Of a stretch of DNA of 30,298 bases, positions 5,436-13,253 are shown piece by piece. A program made the translations under genes and the position numbers. The notes below the pieces were generated by a model. That model ran no database searches, had not been told where the DNA came from, and was given only the letters and a program-made list of their open reading frames with translations. The stretch is from a virus (taxonomy: Duplodnaviria; Heunggongvirae; Uroviricota; Caudoviricetes), in IMG/VR virus record IMGVR_UViG_648276648_000002, one strand, 5' to 3'. The stretch's first letter is position 1. Every line of letters starts with the position of its first letter.

Positions 5436-5636
5436 ATGACAACTGACGATATCGAAAGCTACTTCGGCAGTATTGAGAAAGTTGCTGCTTTTTTCGGCAT
5501 AACAACTGAAGCCGTTTATCAGTGGCGAAACCGTCCGGGCCAGTTAATTCCAAAAGGACGTGCAGCAGAAGCTGCATATAGAACTTGCGGACGGTTGCCA
5601 TTTAAACCTGAGCTTTATGAAAAATCTAATGGATAA
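5436..5636 (+). CDS. cro: Cro-like small HTH regulator (YdaS-like)
   Basis: 66 aa, MTTDDIESYFGSIEKVAAFFGITTEAVYQWRNRPG; GGAGG ribosome-binding site; divergent from cI. Confidence 0.8.
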   Translation: MTTDDIESYFGSIEKVAAFFGITTEAVYQWRNRPGQLIPKGRAAEAAYRTCGRLPFKPELYEKSNG

Positions 5637-6231
5637 ATCGATTAACAGAAACCACAGAACGATGAGGCTAACCGTGGGTAAGCATCACTGGAAAGTAGAA
5701 AAACAGCCTGAGTGGTACGTGAAAGCTGTCAGAAAAACTATCGCAAAGTTGCCGGGTGGTTACGCTGAAGCAGCTGACTGGCTGGATGTAACAGAGAACG
5801 CATTATTTAACCGCCTTCGTGCCGATGGCGATCAGATTTTCCCGCTGGGATGGGCAATGATTTTGCAACGTGCTGGTGGAACTCACTTCATTGCTGACGC
5901 TGTGGCGCAGTCTGCAAATGGCGTCTTTGTGTCTCTTCCTGACGTCGAGGATGTGGACAACGCCGATATTAACCAGCGTCTGCTGGAAGTCATTGAACAG
6001 ATCGGCAGTTATTCAAAACAGATTCGTTCAGCAATCGAAGACGGTGTAGTGGAACCGCATGAGAAGACAGCAATTAACGACGAGCTGTATCTCTCAATTT
6101 CGAAGCTGCAGGAGCATGCAGCACTGGTCTGCAAAATCTTTTGCATTTCAGAAAGTAATGACGCCCGCGAGTGTGCAGCTCCGGGCGTCGTGGCGTCGAT
6201 TGCTTCTGGTTGTGGAGAAACTAACGCATGA
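5629..6231 (+). CDS. CII-like regulatory protein (YdaT/Phage_CP76-like); start codon uncertain
   Basis: ORF 5560-6231 in frame; candidate starts at 5617, 5629, 5662 (ATG) or 5674 (GTG after GAGG). Follows cro in the usual cro-cII order. Confidence 0.55.
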
Positions 6232-6566
6232 ACAGTTTAACAACACACTACCGTCGCTCGCAACTGATTGCGCTTCCTGTACCGGGTGGAAAAGCGAAGG
6301 TGGAATATTGCTATGCAGTGAATGTACCAGGTGACAGGGAAATTGTAACCCACAGCTTTGCAGAGTGGGCTGTGGGGGATTTCAACCGGCAGAAGGAGAC
6401 AGTCCTTTGCGACAAGTTAACCGCTGGTTCAAAGATCACTACGGAGTGCCCGTCAGAGTCATTCGTTGGGAACCGGAAACACAACGGGTTATCTACCTCC
6501 GCGAAGGCTATGAGCATGAGTGCTTCAGTCCGCTCGAACAGTTTCGTCGTAAATTCAGGGAAATAG
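6228..6566 (+). CDS. Small ORF coupled to the cII-like stop (ATGA); C-terminal half low-complexity and overlapped by a better ORF; possibly a frameshifted gene
   Basis: ORF 6228-6566; N-terminal ~60 aa protein-like, remainder Ser/Thr-rich. Confidence 0.3.
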
Positions 6567-6586
6567 AGGTCGGTCATGAGCACTAA
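6407..6586 (+). CDS. Small protein (~59 aa) coupled to the O-like gene start
   Basis: TTG start at 6407 preceded by AAGGAG (6393-6398) inside ORF 6365-6586; sequence [58 protein letters not shown]; stop overlaps the O-like start. Confidence 0.45.
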
Positions 6587-7517
6587 ATTAACCGGCTATG
6601 TATGGGATGGTTGCGCAGCGTCAGGCATGAAATTATCCAGCGTGGCAATTATGGCCCGCCTGGCTGATTTCAGTAATGACGAAGGTGTGTGCTGGCCATC
6701 GATTGAAACCATTGCCCGCCAGATTGGCGCGGGGATGAGTACCGTCAGAACGGCTATCGCACGGCTGGAAGCAGAAGGCTGGTTAACGCGTAAGGCGCGT
6801 CGCCAGGGTAACCGCAATGCGTCGAATGTTTATCAGCTTAACGTTGCGAAGCTTCAGGCAGCGGCATTTTCTCAACTGTCAGATTCTGACCCGTCAAAAT
6901 CTGACGCATCAAAATCTGACCCGTCAAAATTTGATGCGTCGAAATCTGGCAAAAAAGCGGGTTTTCACCCGTCAGAATCTGGCGGGGATCCGTCAGTAAA
7001 ATCAAAACATGATCCGTCAGATAAAAAACCTTCTCGTCCGGACTCTTCGCAACCGGACACGCAGACGGCTGAACAGGATTTTTTAACTCGCCATCCTGAT
7101 GCGGTTGTATTCAGCCCTAAAAAACGCCAGTGGGGGACGCAGGATGATTTGACCTGCGCACAGTGGCTCTGGAAAAAAATCATCGCCCTGTACGAGCAGG
7201 CTGCCGAATGTGACGGCGAGGTGGTTCGTCCCAAAGAACCGAACTGGACAGCCTGGGCAAACGAAATTCGCCTGATGTGTGTGCAGGATGGTCGTACTCA
7301 CAAACAAATCTGCGAGATTTACAGCCGCGTCAGCCGCGATCCGTTCTGGTGCCGTAACGTGCTCAGCCCGTCGAAGCTGCGGGAAAAATGGGATGAGCTT
7401 TCCCTGCGCTTATCGCCGTCCGTCAGCACGTACACAGAAAAACGCGAAGACCCGTACTTCAAAGCCAGTTACGACAATGTGGACTACAGCCAGATCCCGG
7501 CAGGATTCAGGGGGTGA
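6576..7517 (+). CDS. Replication initiator (lambda O-like, HTH N-domain) with internal iteron origin
   Basis: 313 aa; GAGG ribosome-binding site; N-terminal winged-HTH-like region; central repetitive SDSDPSKSDASKSDPSKFDASKS segment encoded by the iterons. Confidence 0.8.
   Translation: MSTKLTGYVWDGCAASGMKLSSVAIMARLADFSNDEGVCWPSIETIARQIGAGMSTVRTAIARLEAEGWLTRKARRQGNRNASNVYQLNVAKLQAAAFSQLSDSDPSKSDASKSDPSKFDASKSGKKAGFHPSESGGDPSVKSKHDPSDKKPSRPDSSQPDTQTAEQDFLTRHPDAVVFSPKKRQWGTQDDLTCAQWLWKKIIALYEQAAECDGEVVRPKEPNWTAWANEIRLMCVQDGRTHKQICEIYSRVSRDPFWCRNVLSPSKLREKWDELSLRLSPSVSTYTEKREDPYFKASYDNVDYSQIPAGFRG
6876..7025. repeat. Iteron array / candidate phage origin inside the initiator gene
   Basis: Repeated CCGTCAAAATCTGAC / GCATCAAAATCTGAC / CCGTCAGAATCTGG-type units, analogous to lambda ori within O. 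Confidence 0.65.
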
Positions 7518-8008
7518 GCATGAGTCTTTTGAATGACGTTCAGAAATTCATTGAAGCCCATCCGGGCTGTACTTCCGGAGACATTGCGGATGCTTTTGCA
7601 GGTTACTCACGGCAGCGCGTTCTGCAGTCAGCAAGCAAGTTACGTCAGAGTGGGCGTGTGGCTCACCGTTGTGAAGGAGATACACACAGACATTTCCCGC
7701 GCCTGACTGAGAGAGCGCAGGATCCGGAACCACAACCAGTTCGTGAAACCAGACCTGTGCGCAATTTCTATGTCGGCACTAACGACCCGCGGGTGATTTT
7801 GTGCCTGACCCGCCAGGCGGAAGAACTGGAGTCCAGGGGCTTATACCGTCGTGCTGCAACGGTGTGGATGGCGGCATTCCGTGAAAGCCACTCCCTGCCA
7901 GAACGAAACAATTTTCTGGCGCGTCGTGAACGGTGTTTACGGAAAAGCAGTAAGCGGGCTGCATCAGGTGAAGAGTGGTATCTCTCAGGGAATTACGTGG
8001 GGGCTTAA
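7514..8008 (+). CDS. PerC-family-like transcriptional regulator with N-terminal winged-helix-like region
   Basis: 164 aa; C-terminal segment LCLTRQAEELESRGLYRRAATVWMAAFRES...RNNFLARRERC resembles the recalled PerC/Pch family. Confidence 0.6.
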   Translation: MSMSLLNDVQKFIEAHPGCTSGDIADAFAGYSRQRVLQSASKLRQSGRVAHRCEGDTHRHFPRLTERAQDPEPQPVRETRPVRNFYVGTNDPRVILCLTRQAEELESRGLYRRAATVWMAAFRESHSLPERNNFLARRERCLRKSSKRAASGEEWYLSGNYVGA

Positions 8009-8661
8009 TGAGTAATAAATATTGCCAGGCGCTGGTGGAACTGCGGAACAAACCAGCCCATGAACTGAAGGAAGTGGGCGATCAGTGGCGCACGCCGGAC
8101 AACATTTTCTGGGGAATTAACACCCTGTTTGGCCCGTTTGTTCTGGATCTGTTCACTGACGGTGATAACGCCAAATGTGCTGCGTATTACACGGCGGAAG
8201 ACAACGCGCTGGCGCATGACTGGTCAGAACGCCTTGCGGAGCTTAAAGGTGCTGCCTTTGGTAATCCCCCATACAGCCGCGCCAGTCAGCATGAGGGGCA
8301 ATACATCACCGGCATGCGTTACATCATGAAGCATGCCAGTGCCATGCGTGATAAAGGCGGGCGCTATGTTTTCCTGATCAAAGCTGCCACCAGCGAAGTG
8401 TGGTGGCCGGAAGATGTAGATCATATTGCTTTTATTCGCGGGCGTATTGGTTTTGAACTGCCTGCCTGGTTTATCCCGAAGGATGAGAAGCAGGTGCCGA
8501 CAGGCGCTTTCTTCGCTGGTGCTATTGCTGTTTTCGACAAGACCTGGAAGGGACCGGCAATCAGCTACATCGGGCGCGATGAACTTGAGGCATGTGGTGA
8601 GGCCTTTCTGGCGCAGGTTCGCCAGCAGGCAGAAAAACTGGTCAGGGAGATGGCGGCATGA
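8008..8661 (+). CDS. Phage DNA N6-adenine methyltransferase (Dam-like)
   Basis: NPPY motif (FGNPPYS); ATG overlaps the upstream stop (TAATG) within ORF 7975-8661. Confidence 0.85.
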   Translation: MSNKYCQALVELRNKPAHELKEVGDQWRTPDNIFWGINTLFGPFVLDLFTDGDNAKCAAYYTAEDNALAHDWSERLAELKGAAFGNPPYSRASQHEGQYITGMRYIMKHASAMRDKGGRYVFLIKAATSEVWWPEDVDHIAFIRGRIGFELPAWFIPKDEKQVPTGAFFAGAIAVFDKTWKGPAISYIGRDELEACGEAFLAQVRQQAEKLVREMAA

Positions 8662-8984
8662 CGACGTTAACTCAATGCCAGCAGCAGGTGCTGGATATGC
8701 TGATTTCTTATCAGAAAGAACGTGGTTTCCCGCCAACCAATCAGGAGGTGGCAGCCATGCTGGGATACCGTTCGGTGAATGCAGCGCTGGAGCATCTTCG
8801 CGCACTGGAGAAAAAAGGCGTCATCACGATAAAGCGTGGCGTGGCCCGGGGTATCACGCTTCATACCACAGTGAAGGACGACGACAGCGAGGCAGCCGGG
8901 ATTATCCGCGCACTGCTTGCCGGTGAGGAAAACGCCAGGCTGCGTGCAACTCACTGGTTACATGAGAGGGGCCTGAAAGTATGA
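8658..8984 (+). CDS. LexA-N-terminal-like DNA-binding protein (108 aa)
   Basis: ORF 8658-8984; winged-helix-like segment QEVAAMLGYRSVNAALEHLRALEKKGVI; ATGA coupling upstream. Confidence 0.6.
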   Translation: MTTLTQCQQQVLDMLISYQKERGFPPTNQEVAAMLGYRSVNAALEHLRALEKKGVITIKRGVARGITLHTTVKDDDSEAAGIIRALLAGEENARLRATHWLHERGLKV

Positions 8985-9370
8985 AGCTTATCCTGCCTTT
9001 CCCGCCCAGCGTGAACACTTACTGGCGACACCCTAACAAAGGGGCGTTTGCAGGTAAGAGCCTGATAAGCGCGGCGGGGCGAAAATTCCAGAGCGCGGCG
9101 TGCGCAGCAATAGTTGAGCAGTTACGTCGTCTGCCGAAACCAACGTCGGCACCTGCTTCAGTGGAGATCGTGTTGTTTCCTCCGGATAACAGGATCCGCG
9201 ATCTGGACAACTATAACAAGGCGCTGTTTGACGCCCTGACCCACGCGGGGGTGTGGGAAGACGACAGTCAGGTGAAAAGAATGCTGGTGGAGTGGGGACC
9301 GGTTATCCCGGAAGGGAAGGTCGAGATCACTATCAGTAAGTACGAGAAAACGGCGGGTGCAGCTGCCTGA
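8981..9370 (+). CDS. rusA: Holliday-junction resolvase RusA
   Basis: 129 aa; RDLDNYNKALFDALTHAGVWEDDSQV matches the RusA catalytic region from memory. Confidence 0.9.
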   Translation: MKLILPFPPSVNTYWRHPNKGAFAGKSLISAAGRKFQSAACAAIVEQLRRLPKPTSAPASVEIVLFPPDNRIRDLDNYNKALFDALTHAGVWEDDSQVKRMLVEWGPVIPEGKVEITISKYEKTAGAAA

Positions 9371-9389: not shown

Positions 9390-10199
9390 ATGAATAATCT
9401 GATGGTCATTGATGGTATTGAAGTTCGTCGTGATGCTTATGGGCGTTACAGCCTGAACGATCTGCATCGCGCAGCAGTAGCATCTGGTGCAAATGCCAGA
9501 ACCAAGGAGCCAGGAAAGTTTCTTTCCAGCCAACAAACTGTTGAGCTTGTTCATGAATTAACCAACACCCAGAATTTGGGTGTTGACCCGGTGAGCGTGA
9601 TTCATGGGGGAAATGAACGGGGAACGTATGTCTGTAAGGAACTGGTGTATGCCTATGCAATGTGGATCAGCCCGTCATTCCATCTGAAGGTGATCCGTAC
9701 TTTCGATATGGTAACCAGCGCGCCGGAAAAGTTATCCGGACAGGCTGCTGACAAGATGCAGGCTGGCGTGATTCTGCTGGACTTTATGCGCCGGGAGTTA
9801 AATCTGTCTAACTCATCTGTGCTTGGGGCCTGTCAGAAACTCCAGGAGGCTGTTGGCTTACCGAATCTGGCACCGCGCTATGCCATTGATGCACCTGCTG
9901 ACGCGCCTGATGGCTCAAGCCGCCCGACGCTGTCGCTGAGTGCACTGCTGAAGCAGTATGGTATCCGCCTGACGGCTAATCAGGCATATCACCAGATGGC
10001 GAAGCTGGGGATCGTTGAACAACGCGAACGATACAGCCGTACCGCGATTAACAACATCAAAAAATTCTGGTCGCTGACAGCGAAAGGCTGCATGTTCGGC
10101 AAGAACATCACCAGTCCCGCAAATCCGCGCGAGACGCAGCCGCATTTCTTCGAATCCCGATTCCCTGAGCTGTTAAAGCTGCTCGATACCGTTCATTGA
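9390..10199 (+). CDS. KilA-N domain protein (antirepressor-like)
   Basis: 269 aa; N-terminal VIDGIEVRRDAYGRYSLNDLHRAA... is KilA-N-like; GAGGAG ribosome-binding site. Confidence 0.75.
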   Translation: MNNLMVIDGIEVRRDAYGRYSLNDLHRAAVASGANARTKEPGKFLSSQQTVELVHELTNTQNLGVDPVSVIHGGNERGTYVCKELVYAYAMWISPSFHLKVIRTFDMVTSAPEKLSGQAADKMQAGVILLDFMRRELNLSNSSVLGACQKLQEAVGLPNLAPRYAIDAPADAPDGSSRPTLSLSALLKQYGIRLTANQAYHQMAKLGIVEQRERYSRTAINNIKKFWSLTAKGCMFGKNITSPANPRETQPHFFESRFPELLKLLDTVH

Positions 10200-10200
10200 G

Positions 10201-11196
10201 GTGACCGTGAGAGCACTACTGACCCCTGAAATTGCCCCGCGTATGGGGATCGTATTGTTCAGGCCAGGTTCAGAGCTGATGCCCCTGTTTATGCAGGGGC
10301 GTGTCCTGCTGGAGCCTGAGCCGGAACGTTATTCATCTTTTGCCAGTGGTGCCGTTCCGGCTGCATCACAACCGCTGGCGGATGATCCTGCCGTTCGGGC
10401 CGTGTTCCGCAATGAGGCAGTGATCCGTCGTGCTGGTGGCGTGGAATGTCTTGAAAGCTGGTTACTTCGTGAAAAAGGCTGCCAGTGGCCTCATTCCGAC
10501 TGGCACAGCGAGAACATGACCACAATGCGACACGCGCCGGGCGCAATCCGTCTGTGCTGGCACTGCGATAACCAACTGCGCGATCAGTTCACGGAACGGC
10601 TGGAATCAATGGCAACGGATAACTGTGCCCGCTGGGTGTTGTCTGTTGTGCGTCGGGATCTCGGTTTTGATGACAGTCACGTTGTGACAATGCCGGAACT
10701 GTGCTGGTGGCTGATTCGTAATGATCTGGCGGATGCCTTACCGGAAAGTGCAGCCCGTAAGGCACTGAGATTACCGAAGCCTGTTGTGCCGTCTGTCACC
10801 CGGGAAAGTGACCTGGTGCCTTCGGTTCCTGCCACCAGCATCATCCAGGATAAAGCGAAAAAGGTGTTGGCGCTGAAAGTGGATCCGGAGTCGCCGGACT
10901 CTTTTATGTTACGCCCAAAACGTCGCCGCTGGGTTAATGAAAAGTACACGCGATGGGTTAAGACGCAGCCGTGCGCATGTTGTGGAAAACCTGCTGATGA
11001 TCCCCACCACCTGATAGGCCACGGTCAGGGTGGAATGGGGACAAAAGCGCATGACCTCTTTGTGTTGCCTTTGTGCAGAAAGCATCACGACGAGCTGCAT
11101 GCGGATAATGTGGCATTCGAAGAGAAGTATGGCTCCCAGCTGGAGCTGATATTTCGTTTTATCGATCGTGCGCTGGCGATTGGTGTGCTGGCCTGA
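10201..11196 (+). CDS. DUF968 (YdfU-like) protein with C-terminal Cys/His HNH-like motif
   Basis: 331 aa; C-terminal [43 protein letters not shown]. Confidence 0.7.
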
Positions 11197-11213
11197 TTTT
11201 GTGGAGAAAGTTG

Positions 11214-11597
11214 ATGCGTGATATTCAGATGGTTCTTGAGCGTTGGGGAGCGTGGGCGGCTAATAATCATGAAGATGTGACCTGGTCGTCCATTGCCGCC
11301 GGTTTTAAGGGATTAATTCCTTCAAAAGTAAAATCTCGCCCGCAATGTTGTGACGATGACGCTATGATCATTTGCGGGTGCATGGCCCGTCTGAAAAAGA
11401 ACAACAGCGATTTGCACGATTTATTAGTAGATTATTATGTAGTCGGTATGACATTCATGTCACTGGCAGGTAAGCATCGCTGCTCTGATGGTTATATCGG
11501 GAAAAGGTTACAGAAGGCTGAGGGCATAATTGAAGGGATGTTAATGGCATTAGATATCCGGTTAGAGATGGATATCGTTGTTAATAACTCTAATTAA
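11214..11597 (+). CDS. Q: Late antiterminator Q (phage 82/21-type)
   Basis: ATG at 11214 preceded by GGAGA within ORF 11199-11597; position immediately before the late/lysis region. Confidence 0.75.
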
Positions 11598-11613
11598 TAT
11601 GCCAATTGTTTAC

Positions 11614-11650
11614 TAAAAATTATTAAAAATGGGGCGTTGAGACGCCCCCA
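11614..11650 (-). terminator. Rho-independent terminator for the porin gene (minus strand)
   Basis: Minus-strand RNA: GGGGGCGUCUCAACGCCCC hairpin followed by AUUUUUAAUAAUUUUU. Confidence 0.7.
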
Positions 11651-11786
11651 AAAATAAAGGGTAATATATAACAGAAGGTTTATATAGTTAGAAGCAAGGT
11701 TGTGCTTCTAAAGGAAGTGGCTTGAGGGAGCCACTTATATGTTGGGGAGGCAACGCCTCCCGCAACATATCTTTTTCGTAATCAGA

Positions 11787-12884
11787 TTAGAACTGGTAAA
11801 CCAGACCTACAGCAACGATGTCATCAGTGCTTACACCGAGTGCTTTAGTGAAGTCATTTTTGTCAAGCAGGTTGATTTTGTAATCAACGAAAGTAGACAT
11901 ATTTTTGTTAAAGTAATAGGTTGCACCTACATCAACATATTTGACTAAGTCCTGATCGCCCCATACTCCAAGATCCTTACCTTTAGATTGCAGGTAAGCA
12001 ACGGACGGACGCAGACCGAAATCGAACTGATATTGTGCAACAGCTTCGAAGTTTTGGGCTTTATTAGCAACGAAGTGATCAGCAAATACAGTCATATTCT
12101 GGGTTTCAGAATAGGTAGTGGCCAGGTAAATGTTGTTAGCGTCATATTTCAGACCTGCGGCCCAAACTTCTGCATTTTTACCGGAAGCAAATACTTCAGG
12201 AAGAACTTTCCCTGCATTAACTTGAGTGTCGGTACGATCAGATTTCGCATAAGTTGCACCGATACCGAATCCTTCGTATTCATAGGTAGCAGAGAAACCG
12301 AAGCCATCACCGTTACCTTCAGTGTAGTTATCGAAATCGCTACGATCGTTTTTGCCTTGGTACTGAGCAGCAAAGTTCAGACCATCAACCAGACCAAAGA
12401 AGTCGTTGTTACGATAGGTTGCAACACCAGTTGCACGTTGAGTCATGAACACGTCGGTTTGAGTCCAAGTGTCACCACCGAATTCTGGCAGGACGTCAGT
12501 CCACGCACCGATGTCGTATGCTACACCGTAGTTACGGCCGTAATCGATGGAGCCGTAGTCACCGAATTTCAGGCCAGCGAAGGCAAGACGGGTTTTATCT
12601 TTGGAGGAACCTTGAGATTCAGCGCGGTTGCCTTTGAATTCATATTCCCACTGACCGAAACCAGTCAGTTGATCGTTGATTTGGGTTTCACCTTTGAAGC
12701 CAAGACGGGCATAAGTAGTATCACCATCATCTGCATCATTAGAGGAGAAGTAGTGCTTAGCATTAACTTTCCCGTACAGATCCAGCTTGTTACTGTCTTT
12801 ATTATAAATTTCAGCTGCCTGAGCAGACATCGCCATCAGTACTGATGCAGCTACAGCAGAAATTGCCACTGTTAATTTTTTCAT
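11787..12884 (-). CDS. nmpC: Outer-membrane general porin, OmpC/OmpF family (phage Lc/NmpC-type lysogenic-conversion porin); intact
   Basis: Signal peptide [23 protein letters not shown], then [16 protein letters not shown]..., ending in the C-terminal Phe typical of porins; start taken at the internal Met of ORF 11787-12944. Confidence 0.9.
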
Positions 12885-13253
12885 CGTGAGCCCTTTTTTT
12901 GAACTATTATTAAAAAATGATGTCACTGCGCGATAAATATTCATCTAATCAATGTGATTATTTCAAGATGTAAGTTTTGGTTTCTCGTTTGATTTGTGAA
13001 GTAGATCTCTATTTTTATCTGAACTTTTTTCTATCGAATCCTATTCATGGCTCTTGGCTGAATAAAAATAAATCTATTAGCCAATTTATATTAACGGCTG
13101 TTATTTATAAGCGCTCTATAATTTGAAGGTTCAATTTAAACCAGCTAAAAATAACACTGGAAATTATTTGTTGGTTATTTGTTGAGATTTGCTTATGTAT
13201 TTGTAGTGGTGTTTTCAATACTCGGTAGCATTCTCGCAAATATCATTTAGTGG

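Follow-up and report, generated by a model that had tools for sequence, protein, structure and literature searches.

YfdN, encoded at the lambda ren position of lambdoid prophages, joins a predicted winged helix to a PerC-type core

Among the closest described relatives of the protein analyzed here are PerC of EPEC (pMAR2) and PchA, PchB and PchC of the EHEC prophages, which like YfdN are carried on mobile elements and share with it a homologous three-helix core of about 55 residues (Pfam PF06069). Activation of ler has been shown for PerC and PchA/B/C only. The Pch proteins relieve silencing by H-NS, StpA, Hha and YdgT and bind AT-rich DNA (PMC4764244), although Fukui et al reported being unable to co-precipitate H-NS with PchA, which counts against taking the Pch mechanism as settled (PMC4764244). 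PchD, PchE and the PerC-like proteins of PICIs (EcCIMP1_025 and those of EcCIEDL933 and EcCICFT073) belong to the PerC family but do not behave as LEE activators; their genes adjoin replication genes of the mobile element, with pchE following primase and SSB genes in Sp7. A further set of small proteins, the ANR proteins (Aar, Rnr; NF033650), is predicted to be three-helical, has an A-x3-E ... A-x3-W-x2-A pattern in common with the YfdN core and acts by binding AraC-type activators and H-NS. The rnr gene examined here is likewise an early-region prophage gene, and the prophage appears Mu-like from the genes around it.

We analyzed a stretch of 30,298 nt of tailed-phage DNA (IMGVR_UViG_648276648_000002), hereafter the window, in which an initial annotation had pointed to an open reading frame at 7514–8008. 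This reading frame is real, lies on the plus strand and in its RefSeq form encodes 164 aa from a GTG at 7514 to a TAA stop at 8006–8008. An in-frame ATG at 7520, located 3' of the Shine-Dalgarno-like stretch GGGGGTGAG, gives a protein of 162 aa and coincides with the 'MSL...' N-terminus of diverged homologues. Because of the Shine-Dalgarno-like stretch and this shared N-terminus, ATG 7520 is probably the actual start and at least as likely as GTG 7514, and the residue numbers of the domains below refer to the 162-aa form. The gene is yfdN. Its DNA is 100% identical to yfdN of E. coli LH50-c, annotated as 'PerC family transcriptional regulator' (WP_021535260.1), and the protein matches PHROG 1324 'transcriptional activator' with E = 2.7e-77. 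Since the label was already present in RefSeq, PHROG and the literature, where yfdN is named 'the K12 unique PerC homologue' (PMC5931665), the identification is already known and nothing new. YfdN of the K-12 cryptic prophage CPS-53 (KpLE1) and the phage orthologues, such as orf40 of SfV, the 'PerC transcriptional activator family protein' of SfII and the 'transcriptional activator' of ST64B, are the same gene with the same neighbours and differ from the present copy only as alleles; identity is 93–100% to E. coli and Shigella phage copies and 69% to ST64B. The gene occurs in 2681 of 5426 complete E. coli genomes (49%) and in 56 phage records, including SfV, SfII, SfIV, ST64B, mEp460 and Stx2c phages.

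The initial annotation also proposed that the C-terminal half carries a segment resembling PerC/Pch activators and the N-terminal half an additional winged helix, and the comparisons bore out the former at the level of sequence families and the latter on the predicted fold. A profile search against the PerC family was significant, with PF06069 matching residues 98–149 at E = 4.2e-8 and 33.8 bits, above the gathering cut-off of 22.6 bits, and the C-terminal fragment alone scored 35.7 bits. EPEC PerC aligned with YfdN by BLASTP at 37% identity over 46 aa, and in hhalign the YfdN C-domain family matched an alignment of PerC, PchA, PchE and their relatives with a probability of 99.4% (E = 6.7e-22, 57 columns). 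Judged from these alignments, the similarity of the cores is homology, far above chance. The match is partial, as YfdN covers only positions 5–56 of the 90 in the PerC model (34–36 bits), whereas PerC, PchA and PchE span positions 1–89/90 with 143–153 bits. On this ground YfdN is without the entire C-terminal half of PerC/Pch (model positions 57–90), and the part common to both is the core of about 55 residues. PerC and Pch are single-domain proteins of 89–104 aa, and the PchD, PchE and PICI proteins are likewise full-length, single-domain PerC proteins without a winged helix (PchE, 90 aa, matches the whole model with 152.8 bits). YfdN, at 162–164 aa, is larger than the small single-domain type (about 90–105 aa) and adds a winged helix, a linker and an L-A-G-x-Y-V-G tail.

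The core occupies residues 90–149 (7787–7966, plus strand) with helices at 90–105, 109–122 and 126–149, and is strongly basic, with a mean net charge of +5.2. It carries the motif A100-x2-L-E-x-(K/R)-G-L-x-R-R-A-A-x-x-W-x-x-A plus C139, which PerC and Pch have in common with YfdN as L-E-x-K/R-G-L/F-Y-R-R-A-A-x-x-W and a conserved Cys. Across 42 homologues, down to 23% identity, the two-domain architecture is preserved and L103, R111 and A112 are invariant. The core may form a single TPR-like hairpin with a capping helix, which is offered as a lead only. A search of solved structures by sequence with the YfdN family profile gave nothing meaningful (best SIL1, E = 1) and Foldseek found no match for the C-domain in the PDB or among viral models. 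Behind the core, a conserved peptide W-Y-L-S-G-N-Y-V-G (residues 153–161; 7976–8002, plus strand) lies in a predicted-disordered tail (pLDDT <50 at residues 149–162), and its family consensus is L-A-G-x-[YF]-x-G. In the YfdN alignment (A1) L155, G157, Y159, V160 and G161 are invariant, and in the alignment of diverged homologues (A2) 38 of the 42 sequences retain G157 and 37 retain G161, while the peptide is absent from PerC, PchA and PchE.

For residues 1–60 (7520–7699, plus strand) the AlphaFold2 model gives an H-H-H-beta-beta topology with pLDDT of about 90, comprising helices at 3–13, 19–25 and 31–44 and a beta hairpin at 47–52/55–60, in agreement with a MarR/ArsR-like winged helix. Foldseek against the PDB and viral models agrees, with generic winged-helix matches only, at weak E-values of 0.02–0.1. 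No Pfam family, winged-helix or other, matched residues 1–67 at E ≤ 1, and matches of the N-domain to PHROG and NCBIfam families were weak; the winged-helix call therefore rests on the predicted fold and not on membership of a sequence family. The domain is only mildly basic, with a mean charge of +2.5, which speaks somewhat against DNA binding. We considered a duplication of the HTH of the upstream replication protein, which would imply iteron binding, and rejected it as BLASTP returned no alignment between the two. The two domains are connected by a linker (residues 61–89; 7700–7786, plus strand) that is predicted to be disordered, with pLDDT <50 at residues 63–83, and that varies in length and sequence in both alignments.

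Lambda Ren, a protein of 96 aa, is said to let the phage escape Rex exclusion, as the label of its PHROG family also indicates. The initial annotation assigned the present gene to the nin region, which is approximately right: yfdN lies between the replication gene and Q, directly 3' of the replication genes in the early rightward operon, and this is the position of lambda ren. Small winged-helix proteins encoded at this position (PHROG 142 and PHROG 1687) have the same place in the operon as YfdN, and the YfdN N-domain is clearly homologous to the ones in Hafnia phage Meifeng and Klebsiella phage 2b. Gp24 of Meifeng is a two-domain YfdN homologue (hhalign 96.9%, E = 1.6e-10), ARB15602 of 2b is a homologue of the N-domain only (97.4%, E = 1e-11), and both genes directly follow O-like and P-like genes. 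ARB15602 matches the Ren-like PHROG 142 at E = 8.3e-7 and so gives a transitive link between the YfdN N-domain and Ren. Direct comparison is weak, with E = 0.012–0.02 for YfdN against PHROG 142 and a probability of 19% (E = 1.2e-3) against lambda Ren in hhalign, and unlike YfdN, lambda Ren has no PerC-type domain.

Stop and start codons overlap on both sides of yfdN. Upstream, the stop codon of the replication-initiator gene (6576–7517, plus strand) overlaps the yfdN GTG; its product has an HTH_36 N-terminal domain and a C-terminal domain 39% identical to that of lambda O. A 15-nt iteron-like tandem repeat of 4.3 copies lies within this gene (6885–6948, plus strand) and is a probable replication origin, in parallel to lambda, where the ori iterons lie inside gene O. 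Downstream, the ATG of a DNA N6-adenine methyltransferase gene (Dam, PF05869; 8008–8661, plus strand) overlaps the yfdN stop in the sequence TAATG, and is followed in the same coupled block of early genes by a protein consisting of a LexA DNA-binding domain only (8658–8984, plus strand) and RusA (8981–9370, plus strand). Hence yfdN is translationally coupled into an early operon running from the replication gene through yfdN to the methyltransferase gene, while pchA is found outside the early operon, close to the Sp4 lysis genes. Promoter- and terminator-like sites occurred at the same frequency as in shuffled sequence, and none was found in or beside yfdN on its strand. The order of replication gene, YfdN-like gene and methyltransferase gene is kept in independent metagenomic and genomic loci where the YfdN relatives are only 23–35% identical: an initiator-type gene is directly upstream in all five independent loci with upstream sequence, a methyltransferase gene is directly 3' in seven of seven, all of one phage lineage, and the LexA-like and rusA genes are conserved in four (L005, L006, L008, L010). 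The GC content of yfdN is 54%, phage-typical and similar to the neighbouring genes, compared to 35% for perC. From its position in the operon, the translational coupling, the phage-typical GC and the conserved synteny it follows that yfdN is a backbone early gene and not an accessory 'moron'. Its function is nevertheless dispensable in at least one phage, because in Klebsiella phage P7641 a methyltransferase gene comes directly after a replication gene of 72% identity, with no YfdN-like gene in between.

Taken together, we favour the reading of YfdN as an early regulator intrinsic to the phage and encoded where lambda has ren, with a PerC-type core that modulates a nucleoprotein or regulator complex, and give it a probability of roughly 45%. 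As a backbone early gene of SfV-, ST64B- and CPS-53-type lambdoid prophages, yfdN would be expressed from the early rightward operon after induction, between the initiator and the orphan methyltransferase genes. The winged helix would place YfdN on particular DNA, and the PerC-type core, possibly together with the tail peptide, may then alter a nucleoprotein or regulator complex at that DNA, by analogy with Pch displacing the silencing complexes of H-NS, StpA and Hha. This would serve the lytic programme of the phage itself or takeover of the host, and effects on host virulence genes would be a strain-dependent side effect. The identity of the gene, the domain anatomy, the homology of the core, the place in the operon and the conservation are shown by the comparisons above, and in this scheme we infer that YfdN binds DNA, which proteins it acts with and which genes it acts on. 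Under nitric oxide stress yfdN of CFT073 was up-regulated 12.6-fold alongside other prophage genes (PMC5320621), and over-expression of K-12 yfdN gave glycogen-deficient cells, a changed host phenotype (PMC2853380).

The initial annotation went further and suggested a regulator of the Pch type that could cross-regulate host virulence, in which case YfdN expressed from the prophage would switch on ler (LEE1). For this we found no support but several counter-indications, and we regard it as very improbable. It is true that the core is homologous to PerC/Pch, that PerC and PchA/B/C activate LEE1 (PMC5931665; PMC4764244) and that Uhlich et al considered the risk from yfdN large enough to remove the gene from the ler::lacZ reporter strain they used (PMC5931665). 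However, the C-terminal half of PerC (only positions 5–56 of 90 are matched) is absent from YfdN, PchD had no effect on ler and PchE less than 2-fold (PMC5931665), and of the PICI-borne PerC-like proteins one represses LEE1 and others were reported to be without effect (PMC11773190). The EHEC LEE1 promoter was reported to be active in K-12, a strain that carries yfdN, only when pch was supplied (PMC4764244). A ler activator also sits poorly with a coupled backbone gene of phage-typical GC that is found in 49% of complete E. coli genomes and is a K-12 gene (PMC5931665). Membership of the PerC family does not predict ler activation, and the label 'PerC family' on YfdN should not be taken as 'ler activator', because YfdN has only the core domain in common with PerC and the effects within the family differ in sign. 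An opposite role, in which the core contacts a host regulator (H-NS, Ler or an activator of the AraC family) protein to protein and thereby lowers the expression of genes for adhesion, biofilm or virulence in the manner of ANR or PchE, is somewhat less improbable, though still doubtful. Among the PerC-type proteins tested the YfdN core is the best sub-threshold match to the NCBIfam model ANR_neg_reg (23.8 bits, E = 2.9e-5), and of the seven residues in the published ANR signature on three helices (A10, E14, A22, W26, A29, W43, R47; PMC4983702) five fit by eye as A100, E104, A112, W116 and A119. A conserved R (135/136) and C139 of YfdN fit the end of the signature, again by eye. ANR proteins bind AggR, H-NS and Ler, PchE represses csgD and curli, and the authors of the study on the PICI protein that is annotated as PerC and represses LEE1 noted its similarity to ANR (PMC11773190). 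Against it, the ANR scores of YfdN (NF033650; 23.0–23.8 bits, E = 3–5e-5) are below the curated cut-off of 32, hhalign with the ANR protein Rnr gave a probability of 3% (E = 0.014), no aromatic residue is in register with W43, and ANR proteins are single-domain, without the extra winged helix and tail peptide of YfdN. Membership of the ANR family was consequently rejected for want of a score above the cut-off or hhalign support against Rnr, and only the resemblance is kept.

Other explanations start from the place of the gene. Given its place at lambda ren, immediately behind the replication genes, YfdN might be a counter-exclusion or anti-defence protein that acts early and with which the phage overcomes abortive infection or exclusion by a resident prophage, as is said of lambda Ren and Rex. 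The N-domain link to the Ren-like PHROG, weak directly and stronger via ARB15602, is consistent with this, as is the divergence of YfdN, which is the fastest in the module: 23–33% identity, a pattern typical of proteins that interact with host or defence factors, compared to 50% for the replication protein (three of four loci, the fourth having a different one), 39–48% for the LexA-like protein and 78–81% for RusA and Dam. Yet fast divergence fits a specificity-determining DNA-binding regulator too, the direct similarity to lambda Ren is weak, and the PADLOC models, which cover defence and not anti-defence proteins, did not match YfdN; we consider the proposal unlikely. It is less likely still that YfdN is a partner or controller of the downstream orphan methyltransferase, acting on its timing, targeting or expression. 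Here the overlap is suggestive, since in seven of seven independent loci, as in the window, the YfdN-like gene is overlapped at its 3' end by a methyltransferase gene, and these genes belong to three Pfam families (Dam PF05869, MT-A70 PF05063 and MethyltransfD12 PF02086). The two genes stay neighbours even in L012, which has lost the left half of the module, and in L013, where the LexA-like and rusA genes are missing; furthermore, a dam promoter was annotated within the yfdN homologue orf40 by the authors of the SfV study. P7641 keeps the methyltransferase gene in place without YfdN, however, and none is annotated after gp24 of Meifeng, so the link is not obligate. The slot may also be a mere hot-spot for methyltransferase cassettes in this lineage, and the evidence comes from a handful of loci in one phage lineage. 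The least probable of these readings makes YfdN a replication accessory in place of lambda P, for example an adaptor that recruits the helicase for the O-like initiator. The C-terminal domain of lambda O binds P, yfdN directly follows the gene of an initiator with such a domain (39% identical), and the operon in the window has no P-, DnaC- or DnaB-like gene. We reject YfdN as a P substitute or helicase loader because P7641 has the same type of initiator without YfdN and Meifeng carries a YfdN homologue alongside both an O-like and a P-like gene; in addition, the homologies of YfdN are to regulators and not to replication proteins.

A more speculative extension, which we think improbable, is that YfdN-type proteins are not 'PerC activators' but a distinct two-domain class that works for the phage in early lytic growth, through counter-silencing or evasion of exclusion and defence, and is functionally tied to the orphan methyltransferase whose gene always comes next in this lineage. 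Each member would combine the winged helix found at the ren position with a three-helix core of the PerC/ANR type and a conserved docking peptide at the C-terminus. If so, the very fast divergence of YfdN (23–33% identity, compared to 50–80% for neighbouring genes) would reflect specificity switching or an arms race, and lambda Ren, PerC/Pch and ANR proteins would each be a piece of a single modular phage early-gene toolkit, some parts of which were later co-opted for virulence regulation.

Returning to the preferred reading of a phage-intrinsic early regulator, the importance of the gene as a finding is small, since it is a common E. coli prophage gene, present in about half of the complete genomes, that has already been catalogued. 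The defined two-domain architecture and the fixed place in the operon nonetheless offer a route to the function of a very common prophage gene, and work on YfdN could clarify how the PerC/Pch/ANR core acts. As regards the window as a whole, its best match was 97–98% identical over 96–97% of the 25 kb tested. Close relatives of the whole prophage were found in a human O111:H2 isolate and in avian O78, otter and cheese isolates.

The open reading frame at 7514-8008 (+ strand, GTG start, 164 aa) was identified as yfdN. At the DNA level it shows 100% identity to E. coli LH50-c yfdN, and of 5426 complete E. coli genomes 2681 carry a copy that is at least 80% identical (for nearly all of them, at least 95%). 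The name comes from the K-12 cryptic prophage CPS-53, RefSeq calls the product 'PerC family transcriptional regulator', and the protein, a member of PHROG 1324 ('transcriptional activator'), is encoded in 56 deposited phage genomes, including SfV (orf40), SfII, SfIV, ST64B, mEp460 and many Stx2c phages. As both the annotation and the name already exist, and the family assignment has been published, nothing in the observation is new at the level on which the initial annotation put it. We found no functional study of yfdN in the literature, where the gene turns up in screens only: over-expression gave a glycogen-deficient phenotype (PMC2853380), and under nitric oxide stress CFT073 yfdN was up-regulated 12.6-fold alongside other prophage genes (PMC5320621). 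One study, which names yfdN 'the K12 unique PerC homologue', removed the gene from its ler::lacZ reporter strain as a precautionary step and not for assay (PMC5931665). Whole-prophage relatives (96-98% identity) come from an O111:H2 human isolate and from avian O78, otter and cheese isolates.

Two start codons are plausible. RefSeq places the start at GTG 7514, which overlaps the upstream stop codon (GTGA), and homologous loci have parallel ATGA overlaps. The in-frame ATG at 7520, six bases further 3', follows GGGGGTGAG and has the better Shine-Dalgarno spacing. Because the N-terminus of diverged homologues ('MSL...') coincides with ATG 7520, a 162-aa product appears at least as likely as one of 164 aa, and residues are numbered here on the 162-aa form.

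The same four parts were seen in an alignment of 20 close homologues and in one of 42 diverged homologues, down to 23% identity. The diverged set came from searching 1.84 billion representative proteins, among which only 147 clusters reached E ≤ 0.001. Residues 1-60 form a winged helix in the predicted model, in agreement with the initial annotation, and this is a fold assignment because the N-terminal half matched no named HTH sequence family at E ≤ 1. In the family, the third helix and the first wing strand prefer basic residues at positions 36, 40 and 49. A variable linker, predicted to be disordered (about residues 61-89), leads to a three-helix core (residues 90-149) with a mean net charge of +5.2, in which every sequence of the diverged alignment has L103, R111 and A112, and almost every one A100, A113 and C139. 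The C-terminal tail is predicted to be disordered and carries a conserved peptide that reads W-Y-L-S-G-N-Y-V-G in the window, where the family pattern is L-A-G-x-[YF]-x-G. Taken jointly, we regard the identity of YfdN and its domain anatomy as very nearly certain.

The PerC-like character of the C-terminal half, also noted initially, was borne out by a Pfam PF06069 match at residues 98-149 (E = 4.2e-8, 33.8 bits vs a gathering score of 22.6). For comparison we used EPEC PerC (pMAR2) and PchA and PchE of O157:H7 Sakai, which score 143-153 bits across the whole 90-position model, whereas YfdN reaches 34-36 bits and covers just positions 5-56. When the C-domain family was aligned with the PerC/Pch family by hhalign, PerC residues 3-59 paired with YfdN residues 95-151 (probability 99.4%, E = 6.7e-22, 57 columns). 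By these profile comparisons the two cores are therefore certainly homologous. The C-terminal half of PerC/Pch is however absent from YfdN, and the winged helix and tail peptide are absent from PerC/Pch, so YfdN is a distant family member of different build.

The gene has an early-operon position. On the + strand, a CII-like gene (5560-6231), an unnamed ORF with no Pfam match (6228-6566, in the position of the DUF4222 gene of LH50-c) and the replication initiator Rep (6576-7517) precede it, and genes for a Dam methyltransferase (8008-8661), a LexA-DNA-binding-domain-only protein (8658-8984), RusA (8981-9370), a KilA-N protein (9390-10199), DUF968 (10201-11196) and the Q antiterminator (11199-11597) follow. 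Stop and start codons overlap with the neighbours on both sides of yfdN, its GC content (54%, perC 35%) is similar to theirs, and on its strand no promoter- or terminator-like sites were found in or beside the gene, the counts being those expected from shuffled sequence. Contigs encoding homologues 23-35% identical gave seven independent contexts (L005; L006/L007; L008; L009; L010/L011; L012; L013). The same kind of initiator lies upstream in all five contexts having upstream sequence, and a DNA methyltransferase gene overlapping the YfdN-like stop codon lies directly downstream in all seven (L005 485-1144, L006 5444-6268, L008 4163-5050, L010 4429-5637, L012 4255-5106 and L013 4447-5331, for example). 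These methyltransferases belong to three Pfam families (Dam PF05869, MT-A70 PF05063 and MethyltransfD12 PF02086). The YfdN-like gene diverges fastest in the early block, with 23-33% identity to the window protein (7520-8005 vs L005, L006, L008 and L010). The corresponding figures are about 50% for Rep in three loci, the remaining one of the four having another kind of Rep, 39-48% for the LexA-like protein and 78-81% for RusA and for Dam of the same family. Taken together, the overlaps, GC content, conserved synteny and fast divergence therefore mark yfdN as a backbone early gene with quickly varying sequence, and not an accessory virulence 'moron'.

The C-terminal domain of the initiator shares 39% identity with its lambda O counterpart, yet the operon in the window contains no P-like gene, and YfdN was for this reason considered as a P substitute. 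This was ruled out by two phages: in Klebsiella phage P7641 a 72%-identical initiator is followed directly by the methyltransferase, with no YfdN-like gene, and Hafnia phage Meifeng encodes a two-domain homologue of YfdN, gp24 (hhalign 96.9%, E = 1.6e-10), placed after its O-like and P-like genes. In Klebsiella phage 2b the O-like and P-like genes precede a 100-aa homologue of the N-domain only (97.4%, E = 1e-11). The slot of both homologues is that of ren in lambda, so the most fitting description of YfdN is a winged-helix protein of the ren position joined to a PerC-type core. This architecture with its tail peptide, and the constant methyltransferase adjacency, are what the present analysis adds, together with a caution on the PerC label that is given below.

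As for function, we tentatively favour, at roughly one in three, that the winged helix would tether YfdN to specific DNA, where the basic core, perhaps with the tail peptide, would remodel a complex of nucleoid proteins or regulators; this would take place early in lytic growth, to the benefit of the phage itself. Pch binds AT-rich DNA at many sites and activates LEE1 only through relief of H-NS/StpA/Hha/YdgT silencing (PMC4764244). PchE hardly affects ler (PMC5931665) but acts as a repressor of csgD and curli, and a PICI PerC-like protein represses LEE1 (PMC11773190). For YfdN, the label 'PerC family' thus does not imply a ler activator; cross-regulation of host virulence, which the initial annotation had added to its otherwise sound domain reading, found no support and met several counter-indications, and we consider ler activation improbable. 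An ANR-like or PchE-like negative modulator is somewhat easier to envisage, though still unlikely. ANR proteins bind to AraC-type activators, H-NS and Ler and exert their effect in this way, and an ANR resemblance was seen by others in another PerC-annotated protein (PMC11773190). YfdN, PerC, PchA and PchE all gave sub-threshold matches to the NCBIfam ANR model, the best being YfdN (23.8 bits vs a cut-off of 32), and by eye five of seven published ANR signature residues (PMC4983702) align with it; the YfdN profile gave no significant match to one real ANR, Rnr, and at the sequence level the likeness is a resemblance only.

An anti-exclusion factor like Ren is equally unlikely. The phage 2b homologue matches a Ren-like PHROG at 8.3e-7, and the YfdN N-domain itself resembles lambda Ren weakly (PHROG E = 0.012, hhalign probability 19%). 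The methyltransferase adjacency, which reflects either non-orthologous replacement at a fixed place or a functional link, would suit a partner of that enzyme, a role we rate below the Ren-like one and only slightly above ler activation. Least probable of all is a replication accessory; such a role would suit the place beside the initiator, and P7641 has its initiator without YfdN.

Several minor observations were made in these loci. The last ~18 initiator residues (A-S-Y-x-D-V-D-Y-S-Q-I-P-x-G-F-R-G; window 7464-7517, L008 3693-3747, also L010 and another locus, L014) are conserved across initiators without BLASTP similarity otherwise (window vs L008). Because 7 of 21 codons are changed synonymously, the peptide itself appears to be under selection, and it may be a docking tail, presumably loosely like the acidic I-P-F tail of SSB. 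Inside the replication gene, a 15-nt tandem repeat (4.3 copies of TCTGACCCGTCAAAA, 6885-6948) encodes the low-complexity run DPSKSDASKSDPSKFDASKS and by analogy with lambda gene O probably represents origin iterons. The LexA-like protein (108 aa) matches PF01726 only (E = 2.5e-19, whole 65-position model), is without a peptidase domain and is conserved throughout the related loci (39-48% identity). An uncleavable competitor at SOS boxes would be a possible role for it. A second methyltransferase, of cytosine-C5 type, adjoins the first in L011 and L013. Many database entries (P0019/P0021, P0023/24/32/37, P0038/39/45 and P0121) fuse the Rep N-terminus to the YfdN C-terminus (234 aa), YfdN to Dam (238-382 aa) or YfdN to RusA (204-206 aa); such fusions probably arose as decaying prophages acquired deletions or frameshifts, or reflect gene-calling artefacts. 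The pchE gene (L003 21772-22044) lies just 3' of primase and SSB genes in Sakai prophage Sp7, a small, satellite-looking element, and rnr (L018 1501-1734) lies in the apparent early region of a Mu-like prophage, judged by its neighbours (AAA ATPase, DUF3164, DUF2786); PerC/ANR-type genes generally seem to adjoin replication modules of mobile elements. Just 3' of Q the GC content falls sharply to 39-41% (11250-12000). A 385-aa ORF (11787-12944, - strand) lies there, and a porin is among the features listed for related prophages under the match. An AT-rich region such as this is an expected target of H-NS silencing, and an early protein with anti-silencing activity might act on it.
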